The notes under the pieces: model-generated
Database searches by the model: none
Told to the model about the DNA's origin: nothing
What the model saw: the letters and a program-made list of their open reading frames with translations, nothing else
Source of the DNA: Eubacteriales bacterium
GTDB taxonomy: Bacteria > Bacillota > Clostridia > Oscillospirales > CAG-272
Assembly (NCBI GenBank): GCA_045597145.1
Contig: JAZODU010000023.1
Coordinates: 2,987 to 66,986, forward strand
DNA: 64,000 nucleotides
Direction: 5' to 3'
Position numbers and translations under genes: made by a program
In this document: piece by piece, positions 7,331-61,647 of the stretch
How positions within the stretch are numbered: the stretch's first letter is position 1
Layout of the letters: every line of letters starts with the position of its first letter

Positions 7331-8560
7331 ATGAGTAACAAATCTGTAAAAAAAGTCGTTCTGGCTTATTCGGGCGGTCTGGACACGTCCATTATCATTC
7401 CGTGGCTCAAGGAGAACTACGGCAACCCCGAAATCATCGCCGTTTCCGGTAACGTCGGACAGGCAGACGAATTGGAGGGTCTGGAGGAAAAGGCACTCAA
7501 GACGGGCGCATCCAAGCTCTACATCGAGGACCTGACCGAGGAGTTCGTTGAGGAGATGATCATTCCCTCGGTTCAGGCGGGAGCTAAGTACGAGGAGTAT
7601 CTGATGGGTACGGCTCTGGCGCGCCCCGTCATCGGCAAGCGTCTGGCGGAGATCGCCATTGCAGAGGGCGCAGACGCCATCTGTCACGGCTGCACGGGTA
7701 AGGGCAACGATCAGGTGCGCTTCGAGCTCGCCATCAAGGCGTTCGCTCCCGGCATGAAAATCATCGCCCCCTGGCGCGAGTGGGACATCAAGTCCCGCGA
7801 GGAGGAGATCGAGTACGCAGAAGCACACAACGTGCCGCTCAAGATCAACCGCGAAACCAACTATTCCAAGGATAAGAATATGTGGCACCTCTCCCACGAG
7901 GGCATGGATCTGGAGGACGCAGGCAACGAGCCGCTTTACGAAAAGCCCGGATTCCTGGAAATGAGCGTATCCCCCATGCAGGCACCCGACGCGCCCACCT
8001 ACCTCACGCTTGAGTTCGAGGCAGGCCGCCCCGTCGCGCTTGACGGCGTAAAGATGAGCGCCAAGGAGATCATCCTCAAGCTCAATGAGCTCGGCGGCGC
8101 AAACGGCATTGGTCTTCTCGACATCGTCGAAAATCGCTTGGTCGGCATGAAGTGCCGCGGCGTGTACGAAACGCCCGGCGGCGCGATCCTCTATTTCGCA
8201 CACAACTACCTTGAAACCCTGTGCCTTGACAAAATGACCATGCACAAGAAGCAGGAGCTCTCCGTCACCTTTGGCGAGCTGCTCTACAACGGTCAGTGGT
8301 ACACCCCCCTGCGCGAGGCACTCTCCGCGTTCGTTACCAAAACGCAGGAGCACGTCACGGGTAAAGTCAAGATCAAGCTCTACAAGGGCAACATGATCAA
8401 GGCGGGCGCATGGAGCGACTGGTCGCTCTACTCCGAGGAGATCGCAACCTTTGGCGAGGATCACGTTTACGACCAAACCGACAGCAAGGGCTTCATCAAC
8501 CTCTGGGGTCTTCCCATCTCGGTTCAGGCGCAGGTTGCGGCAAAGAACAAGAACAAGTAA
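7331..8560 (+). CDS. argG: argininosuccinate synthase
   Basis: ORF 7241..8560. The start is at ATG 7331 (GGAGGA upstream). [20 protein letters not shown] plus [14 protein letters not shown]. Confidence 0.95.
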
Positions 8561-8587
8561 TTTTCAAACACCAAAGGAAACAGAAAC

Positions 8588-9964
8588 ATGGCAAAAATGT
8601 GGGCAGGAAGAACCGACGGCGCGCTCTCGCGCGAGGCGGACGACTTCAACTCATCGATTCATTTCGACTCCCGTATGTACCGTCAGGACATCAAGGGCTC
8701 CATGCAGCACGCGGCAATGCTGTCGGCTTGCGGTATTTTATCCAAGGACGACACCGACCGCATCATCGACGGGCTCGGAACCATTCTTGACGACATGGAA
8801 AGCGGCGCGCTTGCGATCGACCCCGAGGCCGAGGACATTCATATGTTCGTGGAGGCGGAGCTGACCGCGCGCATCGGCGACGTCGGCAAAAGGCTGCACA
8901 CCTCGCGCAGCAGAAACGACCAGGTGGCGCTTGACATTCGCCTGTATCTGCGCGACGAGATCGACACGATCCGCGCGCAGGTCAGGGAGCTGATCGACGC
9001 GATCCTCGCACAAGTAAAGGCGAACACCGACGCGATCATGCCGGGATACACGCATCTACAGCGCGCACAGCCCATCACGTTCGCACAGCATCTGCTGGCA
9101 TACGCGATGATGCTCGAGCGCGACGACGGCAGACTCCGCGACACCGCCGCGCGCATGAATTATTCGCCGCTCGGCTCTTGCGCTCTTGCGGGCACGACCT
9201 ACCCCATCGACCGTTCCATGGTTGCCGCCTCTCTCGGCTTTTCGGGCATCACCGAAAACAGCCTTGACGGCGTTTCCGACAGAGATTTCTGCGTGGAGCT
9301 GCTCTCGGCACTCTCGCTGATCATGACGCACCTCTCACGCTTCTCCGAGGAGATCATTCTCTGGTCGAGCTGGGAGTTCCGCTTCGTCGAGCTTGACGAT
9401 GCCTACACCACGGGCTCGTCCATCATGCCGCAGAAGAAGAACTCCGACATGGCAGAATTGGTGCGCGGCAAGACCGGTCGCGTTTACGGCGACCTGATGG
9501 CACTCCTGACCGTTCTCAAGGGTCTTCCCCTCGCCTACAACAAGGATATGCAGGAGGACAAGGAGAGCGTGTTCGATGCGGTGGACACCGTGAAAAAGTG
9601 CCTCTCCGTGTTCGCACCCATGGTGCGCACGATGAAAACCAAGAAGGACAATATGTACGCCGCCGCGCAAAAGGGCTTCTTAAACGCGACGGATCTGGCG
9701 GATTACCTGACCAAAAAGGGGATGCCTTTCCGCTCGGCGTACAAGCTGGTCGGCTCCCTCGTGGCAGATTGCATCGCCAAGGGAAAGACTCTGGAAACCG
9801 TAACGCTTGAGGAATACCGCGCGCTGTCCGACCTGTTTGAGGCGGACGTTTACACCGAGATCTCGCTGGAGACCTGCGTGGCAAAGCGCATCTCGGCAGG
9901 CAGCACGGGGTCCGAATCGGTAGCGGCACAGATCCGCTCGGTGGAGGAGTTTTTGAAGAAATGA
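8588..9964 (+). CDS. argH: argininosuccinate lyase
   Basis: 458 aa. Contains [20 protein letters not shown] and the [10 protein letters not shown] signature. Confidence 0.95.
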
Positions 9965-10893
9965 AAAAGATATTTATCGACGGCAGCGCGGGAACGACGG
10001 GATTGCGTATCCGTGAACGCCTCGCGGCAAGAACAGACATCGAGCTGCTCACGCTCCCCGAGGAAAAGAGAAAAGACCCCGCCGCAAGACGCGAAATGCT
10101 CAATTCGGCAGACGCAGTTTTTCTGTGTCTGCCCGACGATGCCGCCCGCGAGGCGGTGGCAATGATCGAAAACCCCGACGTGGTGGTGCTTGACACCTCT
10201 ACGGCGCACCGCACCTGCGAGGGCTGGTGCTACGGCTTTCCCGAGCTCTCCCCCGCGCGCGCCGAGGCGGTCAAAAACGCCAAGCGCATCGCCGTCCCCG
10301 GCTGTCACGCCAGCGGCTTTATCGCGCTGATCTATCCCCTGATCCGGGAGGGGCTCCTCCCTGCCGACGCGCTTTTGACCTGCACCTCTCTTACGGGCTA
10401 CAGCGGCGGCGGCAAGAAGATGATCGCACAGTATGAGGAGGACGGGCACGACGCGCTCCTGGGCGCTCCCCGTCAGTACGGACTGACCCAACAGCACAAG
10501 CATCTCAAGGAGATGCAGGCGATCACGGGGCTTCGCAACGCCCCTGCATTCCTGCCCATCGTCGCGGATTTCTACAGCGGCATGGAGGTTACGGTTCCGC
10601 TCTTTGCTTCGCAGCTTTGCGACGGCAAAACGATCGAGGACATCAAGGCGACCTACGCCAAGTATTACAGCACGCCCCTGCTCTCCTACTGCGAGAGTGC
10701 CGACGAGGAGGGCTTCCTCTCTGCGGCGGCTCTGTCGGGCTTGGATTCGATGCAGGTCACGGTCGCAGGCAACGCCGAGCGCATCCTGCTTGTCGCACGC
10801 TACGACAACCTCGGCAAGGGCGCGTCGGGCGCGGCGATCGAGTGCCTCAATACGGTGCTGGGTGCTGATCCCTACCTCGGGCTGGAGCTGTAA
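9961..10893 (+). CDS. argC: N-acetyl-gamma-glutamyl-phosphate reductase (short form)
   Basis: 310 aa. [17 protein letters not shown] and the PGCHASG active-site Cys. The start overlaps the argH stop. Confidence 0.9.
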
Positions 10894-11093
10894 AGCAAGC
10901 CGCCTTTGTAGTGCAAAGGAGTGTGTCAGAACCTTGCTCGCACGCAATATCCCTCTGTGTGTCATCACTGAGTAGGCAACAGGTTATTTAGTCGCGAACA
11001 TATCAAAAGGAACCACACACTGTAAAAATACACTTCTCCGAGCTGATGCCAACCGTCAGCTCCATCTTCCATTTTGAAAGGATTTTTTAGGCT

Positions 11094-12308
11094 ATGAAAC
11101 TGATCCACGGCGGCGTTTGTGCCGCACAAGGCTTTTTGGCAAACGGCATTCATTGCGGCATCCGTAAGAACAAGAGCAAGCGCGATCTTGCCCTGATCTA
11201 CAGCCAAACGCGCGCGACGGCGGCGGCGGTCTACACCAAGAACCTCGTCAAGGGCGCACCCTTGGCAGTCACCAAAAGACACCTGATGGACGGATACGCG
11301 CAGGCGGTCATCTGCAACAGCGGAAACGCCAACACCTGCAACGCAAACGGCATTGAGATCGCCGAGCAGATGAGCACGCTCCTTGCCAAGGAGATGAATC
11401 TTTCCGCCGAGGATGTCGTGGTCGCATCCACGGGCGTGATCGGTCAGCCGCTCAACATCACGCCGATCAAGGACGGTATCCCCGCCCTCGTCGCGGGTCT
11501 TGGCAACGACAAGAGCCACGAGGCGGCAGAGGGCATCATGACCACCGACACGCGCCTGAAGGAGGTCGCGGTCAGCTTTGAGGTGGGCGGCGTGACCTGC
11601 AAGCTCGGCGGCATCGCCAAGGGCTCGGGCATGATTCACCCCAACATGGCAACCATGCTCGTCTTTATCACCACCGACTGCGCCATCTCCTCCGAGATGC
11701 TCGGAAAGGCACTCTCCACCGACGTGCAGAGCACCTTTAACATGGTCAGCGTGGACGGCGACACCTCCACCAACGACATGGTCACGATTCTTGCCAACGG
11801 CATGGCGGGCAACGCCGAGATCACGGCCGAGGGCGAGGCGTTTGACGCGTTTATGAAGGCACTTAACACCGTAACGGTGGCGCTCTGCCGCCGCATTGCG
11901 GGGGACGGCGAGGGTGCTACGAAGCTGCTCGAATGCCGCGTTACGGGAGCGAAGGACGAGGCGACCGCAAAGGTCGTTGCCAAGTCGGTCATCTGCTCCT
12001 CGCTGACTAAGGCGGCAATGTTCGGTGCGGATGCCAACTGGGGGCGCATGCTCTGCGCCATCGGCTACAGCGGTGCGGACGTGGACGTAAACCGCGTGGA
12101 TGTATCCTTCGTGTCCGCCAAGGGCGAGATCCTTGTCTGCCGCGACGGCGCGGGCGTGGATTTCTCCGAGGAAAAGGCAAAGGAGATTTTGCTTGAGAGC
12201 GAGATCGAGATCCGCATCACCCTGGGTGACGGCAACGACGCGGCGTGCGCTTGGGGCTGTGACCTGACCTACGACTACGTCAAGATCAACGGCGATTACC
12301 GCACGTAA
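11094..12308 (+). CDS. argJ: bifunctional ornithine acetyltransferase / N-acetylglutamate synthase
   Basis: 404 aa. GSGMIHPNMATMLVFITTD contains the autoproteolytic A-TML site, and the C-terminus is INGDYRT. Confidence 0.95.
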   Translation: MKLIHGGVCAAQGFLANGIHCGIRKNKSKRDLALIYSQTRATAAAVYTKNLVKGAPLAVTKRHLMDGYAQAVICNSGNANTCNANGIEIAEQMSTLLAKEMNLSAEDVVVASTGVIGQPLNITPIKDGIPALVAGLGNDKSHEAAEGIMTTDTRLKEVAVSFEVGGVTCKLGGIAKGSGMIHPNMATMLVFITTDCAISSEMLGKALSTDVQSTFNMVSVDGDTSTNDMVTILANGMAGNAEITAEGEAFDAFMKALNTVTVALCRRIAGDGEGATKLLECRVTGAKDEATAKVVAKSVICSSLTKAAMFGADANWGRMLCAIGYSGADVDVNRVDVSFVSAKGEILVCRDGAGVDFSEEKAKEILLESEIEIRITLGDGNDAACAWGCDLTYDYVKINGDYRT

Positions 12309-12329
12309 TAAATAAAAAGGAATCACATC

Positions 12330-13205
12330 ATGAACATTTCCAACGCAGATCGCGCGCGGATTCTGGTCCACGCACTTCCCTACATTCAAAAATACACGGG
12401 CAAGATCCTCGTCGTCAAGTACGGCGGCAACGCCATGACCAACGAAAAGCTCAAAAACTCGGTCATGCGCGACATTATCCTGCTCTCGCTCACGGGCGTC
12501 AAGGTCGTGCTGGTGCACGGCGGCGGTCCCGAGATCACCGAAATGCTCTCCCGCGTCGGCAAGGAAACGCAGTTCGTTGACGGTCTGCGCGTGACCGACA
12601 AGGAGACCGTTGAGATCGCACAGATGGTCCTCTCGGGCAAGATCAACAAGAGCCTGGTCAACCTCATTCAGAACATGGGCGGCAAGTCCTTGGGGCTGTC
12701 GGGCGTGGACGGTCACATGATCGAGGCGACGGTCAAGGACGAGCGTCTCGGATACGTCGGCAAGATCACGAACGTCAACGTCGAGCCGATTCTGGACGTG
12801 CTTGAAAAGGGCTACATTCCCGTCGTGTCCACCATCGGGTGCGACCGCGAGGGCAACATCTACAACATCAACGCCGACACCGCCGCGGCAAAGATCGCGG
12901 GCGAATTGCACGCCGAGGCACTGATCTCCATGACCGACATCAGCGGTATTCTGCGCGACAAGGACGACCCCTCCACGCTCATTCCGTGGATCACTGTCGA
13001 GGAAGCCCCCAAGCTCATCGAGGAGGGTGTCATCAACGGCGGCATGATCCCGAAGGTCGAATGCTGCGTCAACGCCATCAAGTGGGGCGTCAACCGCGTG
13101 TTTATCATCGACGGTCGCGTGAGCCATTCGATCCTGATCGAAATGCTGACCAACGAGGGTATCGGCACCTGCTTTTTGCGCGAGGCAGACAAGGAAACGG
13201 AGTAA
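12330..13205 (+). CDS. argB: acetylglutamate kinase
   Basis: 291 aa. VVKYGGNAM, VLVHGGGPEI and NINADTAA motifs. Confidence 0.95.
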   Translation: MNISNADRARILVHALPYIQKYTGKILVVKYGGNAMTNEKLKNSVMRDIILLSLTGVKVVLVHGGGPEITEMLSRVGKETQFVDGLRVTDKETVEIAQMVLSGKINKSLVNLIQNMGGKSLGLSGVDGHMIEATVKDERLGYVGKITNVNVEPILDVLEKGYIPVVSTIGCDREGNIYNINADTAAAKIAGELHAEALISMTDISGILRDKDDPSTLIPWITVEEAPKLIEEGVINGGMIPKVECCVNAIKWGVNRVFIIDGRVSHSILIEMLTNEGIGTCFLREADKETE

Positions 13206-13208
13206 CGC

Positions 13209-14372
13209 ATGAATACTTTTGAAAGAGACGCGGCGTTTATTGCGCCTACGTATGCGCGTTTTCCCGTGGAGATCGTGTCCGGCAAGGGCGCGGTCGTGAC
13301 CGATGCCGACGGCAAGGAATACATTGATCTTGGCACGGGAATTGCCGTGAACACCTTCGGCATGTGTGACGAGGAATGGGTGGCGGCTGTCACCGAGCAG
13401 CTGCATCAATTCCAGCACACGTCCAATCTGTACTACTCCTCTCCCTGCGCGCGTCTGGCAGAAGCCATTTGCGCACGCACGGGCATGAAAAAGGTCTTTT
13501 TCAGCAACTCGGGCGCGGAAGCAAACGAGTGCGCCATCAAGGCGGCGCGCAAGTACGGAACCGATCGCAAGGGAGCTGACGCTTACACGATCCTCACGCT
13601 TGAAAACAGCTTCCACGGGCGCACGATCACCACGCTCTCGGCAACGGGACAGTACGTGTTCCACAAGCTGTTCACCCCCATGACCCCCGGCTTCGTCCAC
13701 GCCCCCGCAAACGATCTTGACGCGGTGAAAAAAATCGCGGACGAGATGCCTCTGGCGGCGATCATGTTCGAGGTCGTGCAGGGCGAGGGCGGCGTCAATC
13801 CTCTGACGCGTGAATTTATGGACGGGCTTGTGGCACTGGCGCGCGAGAAAGACATTCTTCTCATCGCCGACGAGGTGCAATGCGGCAACGGCCGCACGGG
13901 CAAGCTCTACGGCTACATGAACTACGGCATGACCCCCGACATCTTCACCACGGCGAAGGGTCTGGGCGGCGGCCTCCCTATCGGCGCGACGGTGCTTGGT
14001 GAGCGGGTGCAGGACATTTTTGCGGCGGGCGACAACGGCTCGACCTTTGGCGGCAACCCCGTTTCCTGCGCAGGCGCTCTCAACATTCTCTCGCGTTTGG
14101 ACGAAAAAACGCTTGACGGTGTGCAAAAGCGCTCCAAAATGATCCTTGACGCGCTGACGGGTGCCCCCGGCGTCAAGAGTGTCACGGGCATGGGGTTGAT
14201 GCTTGGCGTGGAGACCGAAAAGCCTGCGGGCGACGTGATCGCGGCGTGCCGCGAGAGTGGCGTTCTGGTGATCAAGGCAAAGAACAAGGTTCGCCTGCTC
14301 CCGCCCCTCAATATTCCCGAGGAGCAGCTCGCTCGCGCACTGGACGTTTTGCGCGCGGCGTGTCGCGCTTGA
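13209..14372 (+). CDS. argD: acetylornithine aminotransferase
   Basis: 387 aa class III aminotransferase. Contains [24 protein letters not shown] and TTAKGLGGG (PLP lysine). Confidence 0.9.
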
Positions 14373-14480
14373 TTCGCTTTGTTCGCGCAAACGCTTACAG
14401 AAAAGCTTGTTGTGCGGAGAGTGGCGCACTTATTCCTTGTACACGAAAACTCGTCAGCCGCTTTTCTCTTTGGCGGCAAA

Positions 14481-14595
14481 GGGCGCAAAGAGAAAAGCAA
14501 GAGAAACGCCGAAGAAACATTTCGCGCTCTGCGGCGCGCGAGGAGGGCTTCGCGCCCTCCACCCGCGCAAGCTTTTGAAAAAGCTTGACCAAAAC
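14481..14595 (+). repeat. family E intergenic repeat (about 115 bp)
   Basis: GGCGCAAAGAGAAAAG..TTTCGCGCTCTGCGGCGCGCGAGGAG..CCGCGCAAGCTTTTGAAAAAGCTTGACCAAAAC. A second copy lies at 38770-38889 in the same orientation. Confidence 0.75.
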
Positions 14596-14634
14596 TTTTA
14601 TATTGGGCTGCGCGAGCCCTCGGAAAGGAACCGT

Positions 14635-15618
14635 ATGAATCTCAAAGGCAAACATTTTCTCAAGCTGCTGGACTTCACCCCCCAAGAGATCGAGGAGCTG
14701 ATCGACCTTGCAGCCGACCTCAAGGCAAAGAAAAAGGCGGGCATCCCGCACAAAATACACGAGGGCAAAAACATCGCGCTGATCTTTGAAAAGACCAGCA
14801 CGCGCACGCGCTGTGCGTTCGAGGTGGCGGCGCGCGACCTCGGCATGGGCGTGACCTATCTCGATCCCACGGGCTCGCAGTTCGGCAAAAAGGAAAGCAT
14901 CGCAGACACCGCGCGCGTGCTTGGCAGAATGTACGACGGCATCGAATACCGCGGATTTGGTCAGGAAATCGTCGAGGAGCTGGCACGCTATGCGGGCGTT
15001 CCCGTGTGGAATGGGCTGACCAACGAGTTCCACCCCACGCAGATCCTTGCTGACTTTTTGACCATTCGTGAAAAATTCGGGACGCTCGCGGGCATCAAAT
15101 TCGTCTACATGGGCGACGCGCGCTACAATATGGGCAACTCTCTCATGGTCGGTTGCGCGAAGATGGGAATGGATTTCGTAGCGTGCGCGCCGAAGAAGTA
15201 CTTCCCCGACGCGGCGCTGATCGCGCAGTGCGAGGCGGTTGCCAAGGAAACCGGCGCAACGCTCCGCTTTGAAGAGGATCCGATGGCAGCCGTTAAGGAC
15301 GCCGACGTGATCTACACCGACGTTTGGGTTTCGATGGGCGAGCCGATCGAGGTCTGGGAGGAGCGCATCAACGAGCTCTCGCCCTATCAGGTCAACACCG
15401 CGCTGATGAACGCCGCCGGCAAGCGCGCAGTCTTTATGCACTGTCTGCCCGCGTTCCATGACCTGAAAACCGCGGTCGGACGCGAAATGGGCGAAAAATT
15501 CGAACGCGACGCGATGGAGGTCACCGACGAGGTCTTTGAATCCGCGCGCTCCATCGTCTTTGACGAAGCCGAAAACCGTATGCACACCATCAAAGCCGTT
15601 ATGGCAGCTACGCTGTGA
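14635..15618 (+). CDS. argF: ornithine carbamoyltransferase
   Basis: ORF 14407..15618, whose 5' part reads through repeat E. The real start is ATG 14635 ([19 protein letters not shown]). FEKTSTRTR and HCLPA motifs. Confidence 0.95.
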
Positions 15619-15639: not shown

Positions 15640-15676
15640 GCGGGGAGAGGACTTTTTGAAAAAGTCCTCTCCCCGC
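15640..15676. repeat. family A palindrome
   Basis: GCGGGGAGAGGACTTTTTGAAAAAGTCCTCTCCCCGC, 22 nt after the argF stop. Confidence 0.8.
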
Positions 15677-15750
15677 GCGGCACACAAAAAGGACGCGCGG
15701 TATTGCGCGTCCCGATAGAGGGTGACTGATACCCATGTTCTTGAAAGATG

Positions 15751-15787
15751 TGTGGGGGAAACTTCTTGAAAAGAAGTTTCCCCCACA
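15751..15787. repeat. family A palindrome
   Basis: TGTGGGGGAAACTTCTTGAAAAGAAGTTTCCCCCACA, 10 nt downstream of the stop of the minus-strand gene 15797..16288. Confidence 0.8.
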
Positions 15788-15796
15788 TCGCGTCCC

Positions 15797-16288
15797 TTAC
15801 TCCTCAGACTCCTTCAGATCAGCCGCCTCGACGATGCAAGCGAACTTTTCGCCGCATGCGGGGCAGAGCAGGTTTTCGGGGTCGAGCTCGCTGTCGAAGC
15901 AAACGGTCTCACCGCAGGAGGGGCAAACGATCTCGCAGTAGTCCTCGTCGTCGCAGTCGCAACCGTCGCAGGAAGCGCAATCGCCGTCGCACCACTCGTC
16001 CTCCTCAGCCTCATCCTCATCAAGGTCGTCCTCGTCAAAATCGATCTCCTCGTCCAGGAAATCCTCAACCGCCTGCAGGTCGTCGTCGATCTCCTCGATA
16101 TACTCGTCCAGATAGTCCAGATCCTCGTCGATCTCCTCGATGTCCTGATTGATGGACTCGATCTCTGCAGCCATCTCGCTCACCAGATCCAGAAGAGCCT
16201 CGATGATCTTGCCCTCCTTGGTGGTCTTATCGTAATCAAGACCATCTGCCAGCCCCTTGAGGTATGCGGATTTTTCGGTCAAATTCAT
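15797..16288 (-). CDS. highly acidic protein with C-terminal zinc ribbon (163 aa)
   Basis: Helical N-terminus, then a long D/E tract, then CPSCGETVCF...CPACGEKF. It sits directly downstream of efp. Confidence 0.65.
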   Translation of the reverse strand: MNLTEKSAYLKGLADGLDYDKTTKEGKIIEALLDLVSEMAAEIESINQDIEEIDEDLDYLDEYIEEIDDDLQAVEDFLDEEIDFDEDDLDEDEAEEDEWCDGDCASCDGCDCDDEDYCEIVCPSCGETVCFDSELDPENLLCPACGEKFACIVEAADLKESEE

Positions 16289-16321: not shown

Positions 16322-16352
16322 GGGGAAAACCTTGGTTTTCAAAGTCTTCCCC
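16322..16352. repeat. degenerate family A-like hairpin between efp and the acidic-protein gene
   Basis: GGGGAAAACCTTGGTTTTCAAAGTCTTCCCC; the arms are imperfect. Confidence 0.5.
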
Positions 16353-16368: not shown

Positions 16369-16929
16369 TTATGCGCGAGAGAGATACTCGCCCGTGCGGG
16401 TGTCGATCTTGAGCACGTCACCAATGTTGATGAAGAGCGGAACCTTGATCTGGGCACCGGTTTCAAGCGTTGCGGGCTTGAGGGTGTTGGTTGCGGTGTT
16501 GCCTGCAAAGCCGGGATCGGTGTCGGTAACCTCAAGCTCAACGAACGTGGGAGGCTCGATGCCGAACACGTTGCACTTTTAGAAAATGATCTTGCACATC
16601 ATCTCTTCCTTCACGAAGCGGAAGTTGTCCTCCACCATGTCGTGGGAGATGAGAGTCTCTTCCCAGGTTTCGGTGTCCATAAAGTGATAAAGAGCACCGT
16701 CGTCGTAGGAATACTGCATATCGCGTCTTTCGATATACGCGTTCTCGAACTTGTCGGTGGGGTTAAAGGTTTTTTCAATAACCGCGCCGGAAATGACGTT
16801 CTTCAGCTTCGTGCGAACGAACGCCGCACCCTTACCGGGCTTTACGTGCTGGAACTCGATGACCTGCAGGACGTTGCCCTGACCGTCGTCAAAAGTAATG
16901 CCGTTTTTAAAATCGCCTGCTACTACCAT
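16369..16929 (-). pseudogene. efp: elongation factor P interrupted by one in-frame TAA (complement of 16579-16581)
   Basis: ORF 16579..16941 is EF-P domains I-II (VVAGDFKNG..., [14 protein letters not shown]). ORF 16369..16569 is domain III ([19 protein letters not shown]...TGEYLSRA). Both are in the same frame: ..[19 protein letters not shown]. The start is ATG 16929, after GGAGGT. Confidence 0.85.
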
Positions 16930-17097
16930 ATTTACCTCCAAAAAGCGAAAGTCAAATTTACGTCAGCCCGTGGGCTGTTACATAGTTGCTTTTATTATAC
17001 ACCACTTTTTGCCGTTTTGCAATAGTTTTTTCGCTTTTTTCTTGATTTTTCTTTCGTTCGGGCATTTTTTTGTGCTGAAAATGTGCGAGAATTGACC

Positions 17098-22014: not shown

Positions 22015-22067
22015 GGATATTTGTGGGGCGAGGACTTTTTGAAAAAGTCCTCGCCCCACAAATATCC
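22015..22067. repeat. family A palindrome (longest copy, 26-bp arms)
   Basis: GGATATTTGTGGGGCGAGGACTTTTT-G-AAAAAGTCCTCGCCCCACAAATATCC, between convergent stops (22006 and 22084). Confidence 0.85.
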
Positions 22068-29015: not shown

Positions 29016-29046
29016 GAGTTGACCGATCACGAAAGAGGTGGACGCT

Positions 29047-29592
29047 ATGAAAAGCTGCGAATTATGGTATACGCGCGAGCCGCCGTTCGGCATGGAGAAC
29101 CGCGCGCTTTATACGGCAGAATGTGACGTGCCCGACAACGGCTGGGAAAAATGGTCGCTTCCCATCGGCAACGGCTACATGGGCATCAACGTGTTCGGCA
29201 GATGCGCCACCGAGTGCCTGCAGATCACCGAAAACAGCCTCTACAACCCGCCCGTTTGGGACTATGCCGACCGTTGCAACGCAGGACTGAACAATTTTTG
29301 CGAGCTGTACCTTGATTTCGGTCACGAATTTTCAAAAGTGTCCGACTACCGATGCAGTCTGTCTCTCAACACGGCGTTCGCAAAGACCGAATATACCTGT
29401 GGCGGCGTTCGCTACACCCGTGAATATTTTACCTCCTATCCCGATCGTGTACTGGTAGTCAGGCTCACGTCCGACCGCGCGGACGCACCGCTCAAGCTCT
29501 TCCTTGGCGCGGACTGCACCGCCGACGGCGTGCGTGACAGCTACCTCACGCGCGGGATGCGCACAGGCGAGGTGCTGACACTTCGCTTTTGA
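29047..29592 (+). pseudogene. N-terminal fragment (about 180 aa) of a GH95-type alpha-L-fucosidase
   Basis: MKSCELWYTREPP...WEKWSLPIGNGYMGINVFG...ECLQITENSLY resembles the GH95 N-terminal domain. Full-length enzymes are about 750-800 aa. This ORF stops just before a family A palindrome. Confidence 0.55.
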
Positions 29593-30971: not shown

Positions 30972-31047
30972 TGCGGCGTCGCCAAGCGGTAAGGCAACGG
31001 ACTCTGACTCCGTCATTACCTAGGTTCGAATCCTAGCGCCGCAGCCA
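30972..31047 (+). tRNA. tRNA-Gln (anticodon CTG), CCA encoded
   Basis: Acceptor TGCGGCG/CGCCGCA. The D-arm GCCAAGCGGTAAGGC is typical of tRNA-Gln. Anticodon stem ACGGA/TCCGT with loop CT-CTG-AC. T-arm CTAGG-TTCGAAT-CCTAG. Ends G-CCA. Confidence 0.85.
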
Positions 31048-31196: not shown

Positions 31197-31330
31197 AAAA
31201 GCAGTCAATAAAACAAGTATTATTCTAACATATCACAATTTTTCTTCAAAACCATAAATGATGTTGATTTATTTACATTTTTATGATATAATTATAGCAG
31301 ATTAATAAGATGCAACAGATAGAGGTATAT

Positions 31331-32410
31331 ATGATTACTGTTAATGAATACATCGTCGATAATCGTTTTTCGGCGCCTTGCTTTGTTCGCGGTGATGCAT
31401 TGAAAGTTCTGGAATATTTGCCGGACGAATGTATTGATTGCGTTGTAACCAGTCCCCCTTATTATATGAAAAGGCAATATTTGGGTGGTGGCATTGGATT
31501 GGAATCAACATATCAAGAATATATTGATAATCTCCTTGCCATTGTTAAAGAGGTTTACCGTGTGCTTAAACCATCGGGTTCTTTTTGGCTAAATATAGGA
31601 GATAGCTATAAAAATAAGCAGTTGTTAAACATACCTCATCGTGTTGCAATCAGAATGCAAGATGAACAGAATTGGATATTACGTAATACAGTTGTTTGGG
31701 ATAAAATGAAAGGTGCGATGTCTCAATCCAAGGATAGTTTAGGTTGCGAGTATGAGCCGATATTTCATTTTGTCAAAAGGAAAAACGGATATTATTACAA
31801 TTCTGATGCAGTAAGAAAGAAGCCTCGTAGTGCGCGTGTTGAAAATGGCGCGGTAGTAAGTGCCACGGGAGTAAGTGGTGTTAGATATCGCAGAAAAATT
31901 GAACTAAGCACAGAACTCACCGAAGAACAAAGAGCCAATGCATATAAGGCACTTGATGATGTATTAGAGCGAATCAAAAAAGGCGAGTTGTCGGACTTTA
32001 GAATGGTCATTAAAGGCGCAAATCAGCGTGTAACAAATGGGGATACTACCAATCTAAGTGGTAGAGCTAAAGAATTGCAGGAGAAAGGATTCTATTTTCT
32101 TTTCTATAATCCTAACGGCAGTATGATTTCTGACGTGTGGCAAATTATCCCCGAAGATACTCAGGGAAGAAAATTGCATTTTGCGCCGTTTCCAGAAGAC
32201 TTAGTTAAAACACCGATTATTCTTACTTGCCCTCCGGATGGAATAGTATTAGATCCGTTTGTTGGAACAGGGACAACCAGTTATGTAGCTGCACAACTTA
32301 ATCGCAGATCAATCGGCATTGATATGGCACAGGAATACCTGGAACTTGCAGAGACCAGATGCTCTGAATATGGATGCTTAAATAATGGGGAATTGGAGAC
32401 TTTGATATGA
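31331..32410 (+). CDS. type II DNA methyltransferase (beta-class amino-MTase; SPPY motif, N4-C or N6-A)
   Basis: ORF 31310..32410. The start is ATG 31331 (GAGGT upstream). DCVVTSPPYY (motif IV) lies near the N-terminus and LDPFVGTGTT (motif I) near the C-terminus. The region is AT-rich. Confidence 0.85.
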   Translation: MITVNEYIVDNRFSAPCFVRGDALKVLEYLPDECIDCVVTSPPYYMKRQYLGGGIGLESTYQEYIDNLLAIVKEVYRVLKPSGSFWLNIGDSYKNKQLLNIPHRVAIRMQDEQNWILRNTVVWDKMKGAMSQSKDSLGCEYEPIFHFVKRKNGYYYNSDAVRKKPRSARVENGAVVSATGVSGVRYRRKIELSTELTEEQRANAYKALDDVLERIKKGELSDFRMVIKGANQRVTNGDTTNLSGRAKELQEKGFYFLFYNPNGSMISDVWQIIPEDTQGRKLHFAPFPEDLVKTPIILTCPPDGIVLDPFVGTGTTSYVAAQLNRRSIGIDMAQEYLELAETRCSEYGCLNNGELETLI

Positions 32411-32453: not shown

Positions 32454-33254
32454 TTGGATTTCAAACAAGCAATGACCACACAAATCTGTCCTTATACTCA
32501 ACGGATTTGCACCAAAACGAGAAAATCCGATCCAGAGATTAAAATCGGAACTTGTTCTGTGAAGTATCAGAATCAAGATGTTATCATTTGTCCTTTTCGT
32601 TTGTTAGAACATAATCAAATCTTTATTGATTGTTTGCATTTACTGACGATGCATGAACCAGGTAATGAACTTTATCTTGTTCCGGAGGTACAGATTCCCG
32701 GAGGACATGTTGACTACTTCTTGGTTTCTGCCAAAGATAAAAAAGTGAAAGATTTTATTGGTATCGAGTTGCAGACTATGGATACAACCGGAACTGTATG
32801 GCCTGAACGTCAACGCTTCTTGGACGAACAAGGTATTGAAGTCAGCGCCGACGATTTGAACAATAAAAAACCTTTTGGAATGAATTGGAAGATGACGTTA
32901 AAAACCATTCTTGTCCAGATGCATCACAAGAGCGAAACATTTGAGCACTTGAATAAGCACTTGGTTTTGATTATTCAAAAGCCACTATTTGAACATATGA
33001 AGAGTGACTTCAATTTTGAAGGGATTGAAGGTGTAAGACTTGGCGATCCAGTACATATTCATTCGTACAATTTTGAAGAAAAGGAAAACCGCTTAAATCT
33101 TTCTCTCCACAGTCGTGTTAGTACAGATTCTGTGGGTATTGCGAACTGCCTTGGTTTGAACGCAGAAAGCAAAGTTGAATTACAGGATTTGATTCGAATC
33201 TTGGAGCCGAAACTGATTGAAGCTAACAGACTGAAAATTGGAATAAACAGATGA
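32454..33254 (+). CDS. NotI-family-like type II restriction endonuclease (5' end uncertain or frameshifted)
   Basis: Cys4-type N-terminus ICPYTQRIC...GTCSV...ICPFRL and IGIELQTMDTTG resemble what I recall of the NotI family. An ATG at 32407 overlaps the MTase stop (ATGA) but lies in another frame and terminates at 32475. Confidence 0.6.
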   Translation: MDFKQAMTTQICPYTQRICTKTRKSDPEIKIGTCSVKYQNQDVIICPFRLLEHNQIFIDCLHLLTMHEPGNELYLVPEVQIPGGHVDYFLVSAKDKKVKDFIGIELQTMDTTGTVWPERQRFLDEQGIEVSADDLNNKKPFGMNWKMTLKTILVQMHHKSETFEHLNKHLVLIIQKPLFEHMKSDFNFEGIEGVRLGDPVHIHSYNFEEKENRLNLSLHSRVSTDSVGIANCLGLNAESKVELQDLIRILEPKLIEANRLKIGINR

Positions 33255-41330: not shown

Positions 41331-41377
41331 ACGCGATACGGGGGGACTTTTTGAAAAAAGTCCCCCCCGTATCGCGT
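41331..41377. repeat. family A palindrome
   Basis: ACGCGATACGGGGGGACTTTTTGAAAAAAGTCCCCCCCGTATCGCGT (one-base asymmetry), about 40 nt after the stop at 41290. Confidence 0.75.
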
Positions 41378-47279: not shown

Positions 47280-47325
47280 AATAATGTATGTAATTTTTTA
47301 ATCAAAAAAGTGAGGTTTTTGCATT

Positions 47326-49374
47326 ATGCATTGGTCAGAAGAGATCGCTCAAAGAATCATTGAGCGCAACCCGAACAAGGAAGAATACGTTTGCGCGGCG
47401 GGCATCAGCCCCTCCGGCTCGGTTCATATCGGCAATTTCCGCGACGTGGCAACGCCGCTGTTCGTGGTCAAGGCACTTCAGAAAATGGGCAAAAAGGCAA
47501 AGCTGCTCTTCTCCTGGGACGAGTACGACCGTTGCCGCAAGATCCCTGCAAACGTGCAGGCGGTCGTCGGCAACACCTATGACAAATATATCGGCTGCCC
47601 CTACGTGGACATTCCCGACCCTTGGGGCTGTCACGAAAACTACGCGGCGCACTTTGAGGAAGAATTTCTCAACTCCATCAAGCCCTTCGGCATTGAGCTG
47701 GACTGCCGCTATCAGGCACAGATGTACCGCTCGGGCAAGTACCAAAAGGACATTCTCGAGTCGCTCAAGAAGAGAGGCGAGATCTTTGAGATCCTCGACT
47801 CCTTCAAGACCAAGGACACCTCCAAGAGCGAGGCGGAGCTGAAGGCAGAGCACGACGCAGAGAAGGAAAAGTACTACCCCGTCAGCATCTTCTGCCCCGA
47901 GTGTCACACCGACTTTACCACCATCACAAGTCTCTCCGAGGACTGCACCGAGGCGGACTACGTCTGCCGTTGCGGTCACAGCGGTCACTTCAATTTCCTG
48001 ACCGACACCGACTGCAAGCTGGGCTGGAAGATCGACTGGCCCATGCGCTGGAGATACGAGGACGTCGACTTTGAGCCGGGCGGAAAGGATCACGCCGCGC
48101 CCACGGGCTCTTACAGCAACTCCAAGATCATCTCCAAGAAGATCTTCAACCACGACGCGCCCCTGTTCCAGGGCTACGAGTTCATCGGCATCAAGGGCAT
48201 GACGGGCAAGATGTCCTCGTCCTCGGGTCTGAACCTGACCCCCGAGACCCTGCTCAAGCTCTATCAGCCCGAGGTCATTCTCTGGCTCTACTCCAAGACC
48301 GATCCCACCAAGGCGTTCGACTTCTGCTTTGACGATGGGATCCTGCGTCAGTACTTTGAATTTGACAAGATGCTGACCGACGTGCGCGAGGGCAAGGCAA
48401 ACGATGCCGTCAAGGAGATCATGGAGGCGTGCCGCATTGAGGGGCGCGAGCTCGAAACCGTTCCCATGTCGCTCCTGGTTCAGCTCGGCTCGATCGTCAA
48501 CTTCAACGTGCCGATGCTGGAAACCGTGTTTGAAAAGATCGGAACGCCCTACACCGCCGCGCAGTTTGCCGACCGCCTGGATCGCGCAAGGTTCTGGCTG
48601 GAGCAGTGCGCGCCCGATCAGGTCAACCGTCTGCGCACGACGCGCAATTTCGAGGTCTGGAACGCTCTGGACGACAAGGAAAAGCAGGCAATCGAGCTCT
48701 TGCACGCCTACATTGCAAAGGGCGGCTACACGTTGGACGAGCTCAACGCTGAGCTTTACGCGATCCCCAAGACCGTTTGGGGCACCGAGATGAGCGACAA
48801 GGAGCTCAAGGGCATTCAGGGCGCGTTCTTCCGCAACGTTTACAAGCTTTTGATCGACAAAGAAAAGGGACCGCGTCTGTATCTGTTCCTCTACGCGATC
48901 GAGCCCGAAAAGTACGTTGGACTCCTTGACTTCTCCTACGCGCAGACCGCCAAGGAGATCGCCGCAGAGGCACCCGCCGAGGAATGCTGCCCCGCCGCAG
49001 AGGAAACGGTCGAGGTACGCGAGGCTGACCCCGTTGAGCCCATCAAGGAGCAGGTCACGATCGACGACTTCTCAAAGATGGACTTCCGCGTATGCAAGGT
49101 GCTCAAGGCAGAGGGCGTGCGCAAGTCGCACTCCTGCCTCAAGCTGACCCTCTTTGACGGACTTGGCGAGAGAGTGATCATGTCCTCGATCAAGGAGGAA
49201 TACACGCCCGAAATGCTCATTGGCAAAAAGATCATCGTCGTTGCGAACCTCAAGCCCAACCGCATCTGCAACGTGCCGAGTGAGGGCATGCTCCTCGCGG
49301 CAACCAACAATGCCTGCGGCTGTAAGGTCATCTTCGTCGACGATTCCGTCCCCGAAGGCACTGCGATTCATTGA
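47326..49374 (+). CDS. lysK: class I lysine--tRNA ligase fused to a C-terminal OB-fold tRNA-binding domain
   Basis: 682 aa. SPSGSVHIGNFRD (HIGH-type) and GKMSSSSG (KMSKS-type) are characteristic of class I LysRS. An acidic/Ala-Pro linker follows. The C-terminus (IDDFSKMDFRVCKVLKAE...VVANLKP...SEGMLLAA) resembles the MetRS C-terminal/CsaA-type tRNA-binding domain. Confidence 0.85.
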   Translation: MHWSEEIAQRIIERNPNKEEYVCAAGISPSGSVHIGNFRDVATPLFVVKALQKMGKKAKLLFSWDEYDRCRKIPANVQAVVGNTYDKYIGCPYVDIPDPWGCHENYAAHFEEEFLNSIKPFGIELDCRYQAQMYRSGKYQKDILESLKKRGEIFEILDSFKTKDTSKSEAELKAEHDAEKEKYYPVSIFCPECHTDFTTITSLSEDCTEADYVCRCGHSGHFNFLTDTDCKLGWKIDWPMRWRYEDVDFEPGGKDHAAPTGSYSNSKIISKKIFNHDAPLFQGYEFIGIKGMTGKMSSSSGLNLTPETLLKLYQPEVILWLYSKTDPTKAFDFCFDDGILRQYFEFDKMLTDVREGKANDAVKEIMEACRIEGRELETVPMSLLVQLGSIVNFNVPMLETVFEKIGTPYTAAQFADRLDRARFWLEQCAPDQVNRLRTTRNFEVWNALDDKEKQAIELLHAYIAKGGYTLDELNAELYAIPKTVWGTEMSDKELKGIQGAFFRNVYKLLIDKEKGPRLYLFLYAIEPEKYVGLLDFSYAQTAKEIAAEAPAEECCPAAEETVEVREADPVEPIKEQVTIDDFSKMDFRVCKVLKAEGVRKSHSCLKLTLFDGLGERVIMSSIKEEYTPEMLIGKKIIVVANLKPNRICNVPSEGMLLAATNNACGCKVIFVDDSVPEGTAIH

Positions 49375-58610: not shown

Positions 58611-59486
58611 TCAATCAAACTTGGTAACGACCTGAAAATCATTCAGGTTTTCCTGCGCGACCGAAATGTGGTCGGTCTGATCCTCGTCCAAAAGCAGGCG
58701 CATATCGTACTGCCCCAGATAGAAGTTGGCGTCGGTCAGGGGAGCGGCGGACGTGCGCATATCCAGCGCAAAAAAGTCGCACACCTCGCCCATCGCACCG
58801 ATCAGCTCCCACGCGTCGGCGCGCTGTGCCACCGCCAAGGGAACCGCCACCCCCAAGGGGCGCTTGCCCATGACAGCCTTGACCGCCTTTAGGTAGGAAA
58901 CGATCTCGTCGGCAGTCACCGCGTCAAACGGAATATCGCACAGCAGAACCTCGTGCCCGCCCGCCTGCACAAACTCGCGCAGGACCGCGCAATCCACGCC
59001 CGTTTTGGCATAGAGCAGATCTGCGTCGGTCGTGCCGAACGCCTGCGGATGATATACGCCGCTGACGTACGTTGCCGCCGTGAGCAGATCACTCATGCTG
59101 CCGTCAAACGGATCGTCGTCATGCAGCGGAATCCCGAAATAATCGATCACGTCGGACGTGTAAACCGATTTCCCGTCAGACGTGTTGAGCGTAAAGGATA
59201 CCGCAGGCAGCTCCAGCACGTCGTACAGCGAGTCACCGATCTCGTACGAGTAGGCGTGCACGTCGGGTGCCGTTGCCCGAAAGAGCGGCTCCTCCTGCTT
59301 TTGCGGCTTTCCGTCGCCCTCGCGCAGGCGGCGGTACGCCTCGTCGTCCAGCCAGAGCTTGAGGAGATTTCCGATGATCACGGTGATCAGGAGCGCGGCA
59401 CCCACACAGATCAGCAGGATCGCCCACAGCGGTATTTTTTTGTTTCCCGCACTGCGGGAGCGATATCTGCGTCGGAAGCGTCGCAT
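58611..59486 (-). CDS. hypothetical membrane-anchored protein
   Basis: 291 aa. Basic N-terminus, one TM helix (LWAILLICVGAALLITVIIG), then a soluble domain. I do not recognise the family. Confidence 0.6.
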   Translation of the reverse strand: MRRFRRRYRSRSAGNKKIPLWAILLICVGAALLITVIIGNLLKLWLDDEAYRRLREGDGKPQKQEEPLFRATAPDVHAYSYEIGDSLYDVLELPAVSFTLNTSDGKSVYTSDVIDYFGIPLHDDDPFDGSMSDLLTAATYVSGVYHPQAFGTTDADLLYAKTGVDCAVLREFVQAGGHEVLLCDIPFDAVTADEIVSYLKAVKAVMGKRPLGVAVPLAVAQRADAWELIGAMGEVCDFFALDMRTSAAPLTDANFYLGQYDMRLLLDEDQTDHISVAQENLNDFQVVTKFD

Positions 59487-59520
59487 ACCGTCCTCCTTTC
59501 CGTTACGTCACGAAAGCGCG

Positions 59521-60534
59521 TTACTTGATCTCCAACAGATCAATGCCCTTTCCGTATTTCGTCATTTCAATCTTCAGGGTCTTCTTGACCTCAACCACCT
59601 TTTCGGCAACCACGCCCCACTGGTAAACGGAGAGCAGATTGGTCAGATTCGCCGCCAGATCTCCCTCGGATTCGTCCATCAGCATCAGCACGTAGAAGTT
59701 TCCGCCCGCCTCGACCACGGGGCTGATGTCACCCACGTTCTCCAGTGCGATCGCCGCATCGACCAGCGCGTCGTCATAGGCATGACGCACGATGAAGTAG
59801 GGCGTGACGTTGGTCAGATCGTCGTTCATGTTGTTGATATACCACTCCATGTCGTGCAAGCCGTTTTTCAAGCCGTCGTATACGGATTGCGCCCAGTCGC
59901 GCTCGACCTCGGCGTCCTCACCCTCGCTCACCTCGCGCAAAACGTGCTGTACGTACGCGCAGTTGCCGTCGGTCAGCCACTCGTGGAAGGCATCCTCGTC
60001 GTCAATAAACTCGCCGGCACCCGACATAGCGCGATACAGTCGCACCTTCATCTCCTCAATGGCAAAATGGAAGCGGAACACGTCCTCGGTCATGTAGGAA
60101 TCGGCAAGTGCCTGCTCGTATTCAAGATAGGAATCGTAGGTCGCCTTGAGCGCGTCCATCTGCGCGTCCACCGCCTTTTTGATCTCCTTGCCGTCAAACA
60201 CGTCGCGTCCGATGCCGTATTCGGCGCACGCCATCAGCACCGCGTAGTTGTCGCTGATCAAATCCCACACCTTTTCTTCAAGCAGGGGCTTGTACTGTGC
60301 GGCAGTCTTGGGATCGTCCCAGATCGTGCCGTTTTCGTCGTTCTTGTCACCATAGGTGCGCTCCAGCTCGTCCTTGAAATTAAGCGTCACGAAGCGCAGG
60401 TATTCGTAATAGATATCGTACTCGCCGCAGGTCGCAACCACCTTTTTGTTTTGGCAGCTCGCACAGCTCATAAAGGGAAGCACAAACAAGCACACGGCAA
60501 GACAGATCGCCACGGCTCTGCTTTTTCTCGACAT
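59521..60534 (-). CDS. putative lipoprotein, SurA/PrsA-N-terminal-like chaperone domain
   Basis: ORF 59521..60576. The start is ATG 60534. The signal peptide has a lipobox-like LPFMSCAS. The rest is helical and acidic. Family assignment is weak. Confidence 0.55.
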   Translation of the reverse strand: MSRKSRAVAICLAVCLFVLPFMSCASCQNKKVVATCGEYDIYYEYLRFVTLNFKDELERTYGDKNDENGTIWDDPKTAAQYKPLLEEKVWDLISDNYAVLMACAEYGIGRDVFDGKEIKKAVDAQMDALKATYDSYLEYEQALADSYMTEDVFRFHFAIEEMKVRLYRAMSGAGEFIDDEDAFHEWLTDGNCAYVQHVLREVSEGEDAEVERDWAQSVYDGLKNGLHDMEWYINNMNDDLTNVTPYFIVRHAYDDALVDAAIALENVGDISPVVEAGGNFYVLMLMDESEGDLAANLTNLLSVYQWGVVAEKVVEVKKTLKIEMTKYGKGIDLLEIK

Positions 60535-60708
60535 AATTTTCCTATCCTCCAAGCGATTATTTCTTTCATTATACAAGATACTTATGTATTTTTTGTGAAT
60601 ATACGCGAAAAAGCGGACGAAATTTTGAAAAATGGGTTCCCTTTCTCAAAAAATTATGTTACAATAAATATAAATCTTACACACAGATCGAAAGGAGACG
60701 ACGCGCCC

Positions 60709-61647
60709 ATGAAACGGATCTACAAGGTGCCGCTTACGAAAATCGTTGAGGACTTCCATCTGGAGGTCATCGTCCGCCCCGATAATTTTGAGGAGATTCA
60801 GATCACCTCCCCCGAGGTCAACCGCCCGGGTCTGGCTCTGGCGGGCTTTTACGAGATCTTTGAAGCCGAGCGCATTCAGCTGATCGGTAAGGCGGAAACG
60901 CACTACCTGCAGTCGCTCGTGCCCAGCACCAAGCGCGTGATGCTCCAGAAATTCGTCGATGCGCGCCCCGTGGCGATCATCTATACGACGGATCTGCCCG
61001 TGGACGACGCGGTGATCGAGCGAGCAGGTGCCGTCGGCGTGCCGGTTCTGCGCACGGCGGTCAAAACCAGCCAGCTCATGGCAAGCCTGATCTCCTCGCT
61101 CAACATCTATTTAGCCCCCCGCATCACCCGTCACGGCGGTCTTGTCGAGGTCTACGGCGAGGGTATGCTGCTCCTTGGCGACAGCGGCGTCGGCAAAAGT
61201 GAAACCACGATCGAGCTGATCAAGCGCGGACACCGCCTGATCGCAGACGACGCGGTGGAGATCAAGCGCGTGTCCGACAAAACGCTGGTCGGCTCCGCTC
61301 CCGACCTGATCCGCCACTACGTGGAGCTGCGCGGCATCGGCATCGTGGACGTGCGCCGCCTGTTCGGTATGGGCGCGGTCAAGGAGACCGAAAAGATCGA
61401 CCTCGTCATTCAGCTGGAAAACTGGGTCGAGGGAAAGATGTACGACCGCCTTGGCATGGACGAGGAGAAGATCAACATTCTCGGCATCGACGTCCCCTCC
61501 ATCACCGTTCCCGTCCGCCCCGGACGAAACCTTGCGATCATTCTTGAGGTGGCGGCAATGAACTACCGCCAGAAGCGCATGGGCTACAACACCGCCGAGG
61601 AATTCAACAAACGCATGATGCGCCAGATGGGCGTTGACGAGCTCTGA
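60709..61647 (+). CDS. hprK: HPr(Ser) kinase/phosphorylase
   Basis: This is the 3' third of ORF 59359..61647. The start is ATG 60709 (AAAGGAGA upstream). GDSGVGKSETTIELIKRGHRLIADD (P-loop) and VELRGIGIVDV. Confidence 0.9.
   Translation: MKRIYKVPLTKIVEDFHLEVIVRPDNFEEIQITSPEVNRPGLALAGFYEIFEAERIQLIGKAETHYLQSLVPSTKRVMLQKFVDARPVAIIYTTDLPVDDAVIERAGAVGVPVLRTAVKTSQLMASLISSLNIYLAPRITRHGGLVEVYGEGMLLLGDSGVGKSETTIELIKRGHRLIADDAVEIKRVSDKTLVGSAPDLIRHYVELRGIGIVDVRRLFGMGAVKETEKIDLVIQLENWVEGKMYDRLGMDEEKINILGIDVPSITVPVRPGRNLAIILEVAAMNYRQKRMGYNTAEEFNKRMMRQMGVDEL

Follow-up and report, generated by a model that had tools for sequence, protein, structure and literature searches.

The locus examined here raises the question of why a gene for elongation factor P (EF-P), efp, carries a stop codon inside an otherwise ordinary reading frame. 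The gene lies on the minus strand at positions 16369-16929 of the window, by which we mean the whole 64-kb stretch of DNA that was analysed. The stop may be real and bypassed, it may be real and destructive, or it may be an error in the sequence. Overall, the stop is most likely explained by an error in the local sequence or by a knockout of very recent date, and not by new biology.

Reading Frame and Expression Signals of efp

The efp frame (minus strand, 16929..16369) comprises 186 codons and a terminal TAA. Its length of 561 nt is a multiple of three, and the frame is free of indels. When the EF-P proteins of E. coli and B. subtilis were used as tblastn queries, the whole frame was aligned (E = 3e-49 and 6e-52, respectively). 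Together with the Pfam matches and the identity to related EF-P, this upheld the gene call of the first-pass annotation, which was made from the DNA letters. A search for a second efp, which that annotation had proposed, was run on the 64-kb window with the same two queries, and none was found. The sole internal stop of the frame is a TAA at codon 117 (complement of 16579-16581), in the codon context ATC ATT TTC TAA AAG TGC AAC GTG. An uninterrupted frame of about 185 codons is therefore not present. In the ORF list, the gene appears as an N-terminal ORF (16579-16941, minus strand), whose real start is the ATG at 16929, and a C-terminal ORF of 66 aa that begins with a GTG (16369-16569, minus strand). 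The two had been described as collinear and in the same frame, and the 561-nt translation without an indel agrees with this description. The translation ends in EYLSRA*.

The expression signals of the gene are also in place. A sigma-70-like promoter (TTGCAA, a spacer of 17 nt, and TATAAT) is predicted by consensus match at 16994-17022 on the minus strand, and a Shine-Dalgarno motif, GGAGG (16935-16939, minus strand), stands 5 nt ahead of the ATG at 16929. The intact promoter and ribosome-binding site reported earlier are borne out by these motifs. An intrinsic-terminator-like hairpin of 13 pairs with a T run (16322-16352, minus strand) is found just past the efp stop.

TAA as a Stop Codon in the Window

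TAA is a normal stop in the window. It ends argG, argC, argJ, argB, glnA, rnhA, and dut, and a dozen or more genes confirmed by Pfam terminate in this way. The terminator of efp itself is a TAA, and the C-terminus in front of it is the same as that of all relatives. The earlier statement that TAA is a genuine terminator, made for argG and rnhA, is confirmed. No other gene in the window is split by an in-frame stop, and the remaining adjacent ORF pairs in the same frame each represent two distinct genes that start independently. The only tRNA gene within the window is that of tRNA-Gln(CTG). Frameshifting by -1 or +1 is irrelevant here, since both parts of efp are in one frame; a -1 slip at UUU-UCU-AAA would lead to a stop after 15 codons.

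Domains of the Interrupted Protein

All three EF-P domains were recovered by Pfam across the two fragments, well over the curated cut-offs. The N-terminal 116 codons (16582-16929, minus strand) encode the KOW-like domain I (PF08207, residues 4-61) and a truncated OB domain II (PF01132, residues 69-116, corresponding to profile positions 1-48 of 54). The rest of the frame (16369-16578, minus strand) encodes the last strand of domain II and the whole of domain III (PF09285, profile positions 1-56 of 56), and ends with the normal TAA terminator. In an intact relative, PF01132 extends to residue 121 and PF09285 begins at residue 130. The stop cuts OB domain II, so that its last six profile positions are lost, and it does not fall at a border between domains II and III, where the first-pass annotation had placed the split. 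In EF-P, the lysine that is modified in characterised bacteria sits in a conserved loop that forms the tip of domain I. The KPGKGAAF loop that had been noticed in the N-terminal part is present at residues 29-37 (as VKPGKGAAF), and it is invariant in the alignment of relatives.

Triple Substitution at the Internal Stop

The gene was compared with 99 related loci, which were obtained from a scan of GTDB species representatives (at least 80 loci) and from ENA, Logan, NCBI, and JGI. The GTDB loci belong to MAGs of uncultured gut Clostridia, Eubacteriales, and Oscillospiraceae from ruminants, other animals, and humans. Full-length efp was present in 97 of the 99 relatives, and the other two end at contig ends. 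An internal stop was found in the efp of none of them (0/99).

A codon comparison with 24 close relatives and with all 99 revealed three substitutions unique to the window, clustered at 16575-16583 on the minus strand. The first is C>T at gene nt 347 (window 16583, S116F), the second is C>A at gene nt 351 (window 16579, Y117*), and the third is G>T at gene nt 355 (window 16575, G119C). They fall within 9 nt and are spaced 4 nt apart, and the stop is one of the three. The window reads TTC TAA AAG TGC (F-*-K-C) vs. TCC TAY AAG GGY (S-Y-K-G) in all 99 relatives retrieved, and the nearest relatives (L006 and L087-L089) carry ATT TCC TAC AAG GGC at this site. Ser116, Tyr117, and Gly119 are invariant in the relatives (99/99), and all three are mutated in the window. 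All three changes are directed from G:C to A:T or T:A. A pair of indels at the cluster was rejected, because the best alignment consists of three mismatches without gaps.

The first-pass annotation had explained the stop by a single change from TAY to TAA at a conserved tyrosine. The tyrosine is indeed conserved (TAC or TAT in 99/99 relatives), and the stop is one base away from TAC; the single change is only part of the picture, as S116F and G119C are also present. The question whether the TAA is conserved in relatives, raised there as a check, is answered in the negative by the same count of Tyr codons.

Conservation of the Gene and Its Neighbourhood

The EF-P of the window shares 94-98% aa identity with intact 186-aa EF-P from related MAGs. 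Among the thousands of EF-P sequences that a protein search retrieved, the top-ranking ones were 186 aa long and, as cluster representatives, 90-94% identical, and all of these were intact. Among the GTDB matches listed, the nearest, a different species, has 94% nucleotide identity in efp and 87% in the flanks. Each related genome appears once among the best 80 GTDB matches listed, where a divergent paralogue would not show. The DNA flanking efp is 81-89.5% identical to that of close relatives. The nearest GH5 neighbour (96% aa identity) belongs to another species with flanks 89.5% identical, and the EF-P that is one residue off the "repaired" window protein belongs to another species with flanks 81% identical; efp is intact in both. 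The order of a GH5-like gene (divergent), efp, and a gene for a protein of 159-180 aa is the same in L001-L003 and L087-L099. The same gene order and the similar flanks in close relatives establish the orthology of efp.

The gene immediately 3' of efp in the window (15797-16288, minus strand) encodes a very acidic protein that carries paired, zinc-ribbon-like CxxC motifs and has no match in Pfam. An acidic CxxC protein of 159-180 aa lies beside efp in every retrieved relative whose contig runs past efp, including L001 (3079-3621), L087 (8565-9047), and L090 (10644-11123). Within this clade, efp has this uncharacterised gene as a conserved neighbour.

With codons 116-119 excluded, the comparison with L006 gave 25 synonymous and 4 non-synonymous changes (dN/dS 0.038), and that with L087 gave 24 and 3 (dN/dS 0.030). 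Because the differences outside the four codons are almost only synonymous (dN/dS 0.03-0.04), efp has been under strong purifying selection until essentially now. In codons 116-119, about 0.08 non-synonymous changes were expected (dN of about 0.009), and three were observed, all at invariant residues. Neither ordinary divergence nor an old pseudogene in slow decay can account for this excess, and the cluster must be either an artefact or a single event of very recent date.

Independent Support for the Allele

Among approximately 15 billion proteins, the 116-aa and 66-aa fragments of efp were each found on exactly one contig, the NCBI contig of 67,129 bp. The same set contained no record of the repaired protein or of any intermediate (FYKC, SYKC, FYKG, or IIS followed by the stop). 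Another nine window proteins are likewise confined to this NCBI contig. Look-ups of the exact products of the efp fragments, the 163-aa gene downstream of efp, the GH5 gene, and ArgF returned nothing beyond the window's own contig. The TAA allele had no match in JGI metagenomes, and the wild-type form had three, which were distant. The looked-up proteins of the window occur on one contig only, which indicates that the lineage has been sequenced once; the allele is therefore without independent support, and public assemblies neither confirm nor refute it.

ArgD, GlnA, ArgG, ArgC, and an ACT-domain protein were singletons at 90% identity among the approximately 15 billion proteins. Since several products of the arginine cluster are such singletons, the lineage is very sparsely sampled. 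The cluster itself is a complete arginine biosynthesis cluster on one strand (7331-15618, plus strand), in the order argG-argH-argC (short form)-argJ-argB-argD-argF.

Template and Assembly Quality

No second copy of the mutated 21-mer was found in the window, even with three mismatches allowed. No convincing inverted or direct repeat was found at the cluster, where the local repeats are trivial. The 99 related loci contain a single copy of the mutated 14-mer TTTTCTAAAAGTGC, at 1012-1025 of L019, in a methionyl-tRNA formyltransferase-like gene (fmt) of another species. In addition, the 14-mer matches a hairpin repeat of the window, GGACTTTTTGAAAA, at 12 of 14 positions in three copies. When the repeat copies are counted as one, both the L019 and the repeat matches are in line with chance. 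A templated mutation, or gene conversion from the fmt gene of L019 or from the hairpin repeat, was rejected because neither match is compatible with a continuous conversion tract, and the matches were judged a coincidence. Perfect hairpins with the core GGACTTTTTGAAAAAGTCC are located at 15640-15672, 22023-22055, and 41335-41368 (also 15742-15790), and their outer stems differ but compensate mutually. They sit just past argF, glnA, and a DUF6106 gene. They appear to form a family of palindromes of terminator-like or REP-like type.

There was no sign of generally low assembly quality. For about 45 window genes, most Pfam matches span the full length; efp is the only gene that a stop divides, and no comparable cluster of substitutions was found in rpoZ, remA, the 163-aa gene, or the GH5 gene, the four ORFs compared with usefully close relatives. 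In gmk, seven residues unique to the window were flagged against ten relatives that are at most 66% identical, which is too distant to be informative. A truncation of argC was also considered and rejected, as the gene is the short form.

Other Loci in the Window

The gene of tRNA-Gln(CTG) (30972-31047) is followed by two genes of very low GC3 (0.32-0.37 vs. 0.7-0.8 in the rest of the window), which encode an N6/N4 DNA methylase (31310-32410) and a NotI-like restriction endonuclease (32454-33254). The segment 30972-33254 probably represents a type II restriction-modification island that was acquired by horizontal transfer and is located at a tRNA gene. An ORF of 184 aa (29038-29592, plus strand) contains a partial GH95-type N-terminal domain (PF14498, best stretch 90-152 of 234) and is followed by an ABC ATPase gene on the opposite strand. 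This ORF is probably what is left of a longer gene for a glycoside hydrolase. The gene at 47314-49374 (plus strand) encodes a lysyl-tRNA synthetase of class I (PF01921), whose C-terminal part is a tRNA-binding domain (PF01588). At 59359-61647 (plus strand), HPr kinase domains are confined to residues 457-753 of an open frame of 762 codons. The upstream 450 codons of this frame are overlapped by an antisense ORF of 374 codons (59521-60645, minus strand) with coding-like base composition and no Pfam match, and either strand may code.

Origin of the Internal Stop

We believe that a local error, or an unrepresentative read path, in the single MAG contig is the most probable origin of the stop, with a probability of roughly 0.55. 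Three wrong bases within nine would then constitute an erroneous or unrepresentative stretch of one metagenome-assembled contig. Such a cluster may arise during sequencing or assembly, from a low-quality or damaged template, from PCR duplicates, or from a minority path of the assembler. The living population would keep an ordinary intact efp (..CKIISYKGNVF..), as in the relatives. The error is favoured because the triple cluster is unique and falls at invariant residues, the rest of the gene is strongly constrained, its expression signals and downstream codons are intact, and the observation is single and uncorroborated. Errors tend to cluster in poor read segments, and three simultaneous real point mutations are rare. 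Several points count against an error. The rest of the window is clean, the error was judged from the assembled contig and not from reads, and the length of the contig (67 kb) implies reasonable coverage. Common metagenome assemblers drop k-mers seen once, so random single-read errors seldom survive. The three changes, from G:C to A:T or T:A, also run the way that real spontaneous mutations usually do. A base-call error and a recent nonsense mutation were both among the alternatives put forward by the first-pass annotation.

The second of these, a genuine allele, is quite possible, although on balance we think it somewhat improbable. A very recent complex (multi-nucleotide) mutation would have made efp null in the dominant strain of the sample. 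A single event, for example a short patch of error-prone repair or translesion synthesis, would have altered the three bases, and the cell, with a 116-residue product and an incomplete OB domain, would be effectively EF-P-null. The cell would survive because some bacteria can do without EF-P, whose absence is partly made up for by other factors. The deposited sequence does carry the triple change, and the rest of the window has no sign of poor quality. All three changes follow the common spontaneous direction (G:C>A:T or G:C>T:A), and the dN/dS of 0.03-0.04 elsewhere in the gene agrees with an event so recent that no further decay has followed. According to published reports, EF-P is not essential in several bacteria, B. 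subtilis among them, where YfmR/Uup and YebC2 partly back it up (PMC13602936; PMC10895253, PMC11990639). However, the gene is strongly constrained, with an intact copy in 99/99 relatives, and a null allele in a dominant strain would be unexpected. A triple simultaneous substitution is a rare type of mutation, and the window holds neither a templating donor sequence nor a second efp. Reports of the EfpL paralogue concern Gammaproteobacteria and a small number of other phyla, and the list does not include Firmicutes (PMC13602936). In addition, JGI metagenomes and the approximately 15 billion proteins yielded no independent observation of the allele.

A functional two-piece EF-P is very improbable. 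In such a factor, a fragment of domains I and II (IF5A-like) and a separately initiated domain III would act together or apart, and domain III would be produced from the GTG at 16569 by termination-reinitiation. Both pieces are undamaged and in frame, and the second contains a complete domain III. The GTG (16567-16569) is the sole restart candidate downstream of the TAA and lies 9 nt past it; however, a Shine-Dalgarno motif ahead of it is absent in TTCTAAAAGTGCAAC. The break also lies inside the OB domain, with the loss of six profile positions, the split was found in 0/99 relatives and on one contig only, and S116F and G119C strike invariant residues. The functional split EF-P listed among the earlier alternatives is unsupported by these data. 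Similarly, we give very little credence to the broader idea that the TAA is real and that EF-P activity is kept, whether through low-level readthrough, a reinitiated two-piece factor, or an IF5A-like two-domain fragment.

Least probable of all is the decoding of the TAA into full-length EF-P by programmed readthrough, a suppressor, or a reassigned codon, as the frame is kept across the stop but TAA terminates efp and seven other genes named above, no other gene in the window is split by an in-frame TAA, tRNA-Gln(CTG) is the sole tRNA within the window, and the site, unlike a programmed signal, is conserved in 0/99 relatives. The readthrough option of the first-pass annotation thus finds no support, and we know of no role of the TAA-A context in bacterial readthrough.

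Comparison with Known Systems

The efp of the window is an orthologue of the ordinary EF-P gene of Clostridia, with the same three Pfam domains, KPGKGAAF loop, length, and C-terminus. The synteny is also the same, consisting of a GH5-like gene, efp, and a Cys-rich acidic gene of 159-180 codons. The intact EF-P of the sister lineages P0241 and P0242 has 97% aa identity to that of the window, and three of the five differences in 186 residues are the cluster. The nearest solved structure is PDB 1YBY, which is matched by the intact relative P0241 at E = 2e-84. At positions 116-119, PDB 1YBY has S-H-K-G, whereas the window has F-*-K-C and the relatives have S-Y-K-G.

The interruption is also similar to the "internal stop" pseudogenes or assembly-error splits of draft genomes and MAGs, in that one stop in a conserved gene with intact signals forms a private allele. 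Compared with this class, efp of the window is unusual only in the two adjacent missense changes and the spacing of 4 nt. The efp interruption belongs to the familiar "internal stop" class of draft genomes and is not a new kind of feature. The +1 frameshift of prfB likewise involves a stop inside a translation-factor gene. However, prfB-type sites are conserved and need a frameshift, whereas the two parts of efp are in the same frame and the stop is found in no relative. The N-terminal product of the window would keep domain I and most of domain II, and in this it recalls a/eIF5A, the archaeal/eukaryotic homologue of EF-P without domain III. In contrast to a/eIF5A, the OB domain of the window is truncated (48 of 54 profile positions), and the sequence is that of a bacterial EF-P with no sign of adaptation to two domains.

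Implications of the Interrupted efp

The finding is ordinary, a probable artefact and otherwise a private null allele. If the cluster is an error, it serves as no more than a quality flag, and the deposited contig is unfit for claiming a loss of EF-P. A split or truncated EF-P that is still active, if true, would mean a natural bacterium running on such a factor. If the allele is genuine, it would represent a natural EF-P-null strain in an uncultured lineage of gut Clostridia. This would still involve no new mechanism, and it would be mildly interesting for the dispensability of EF-P outside laboratory strains.
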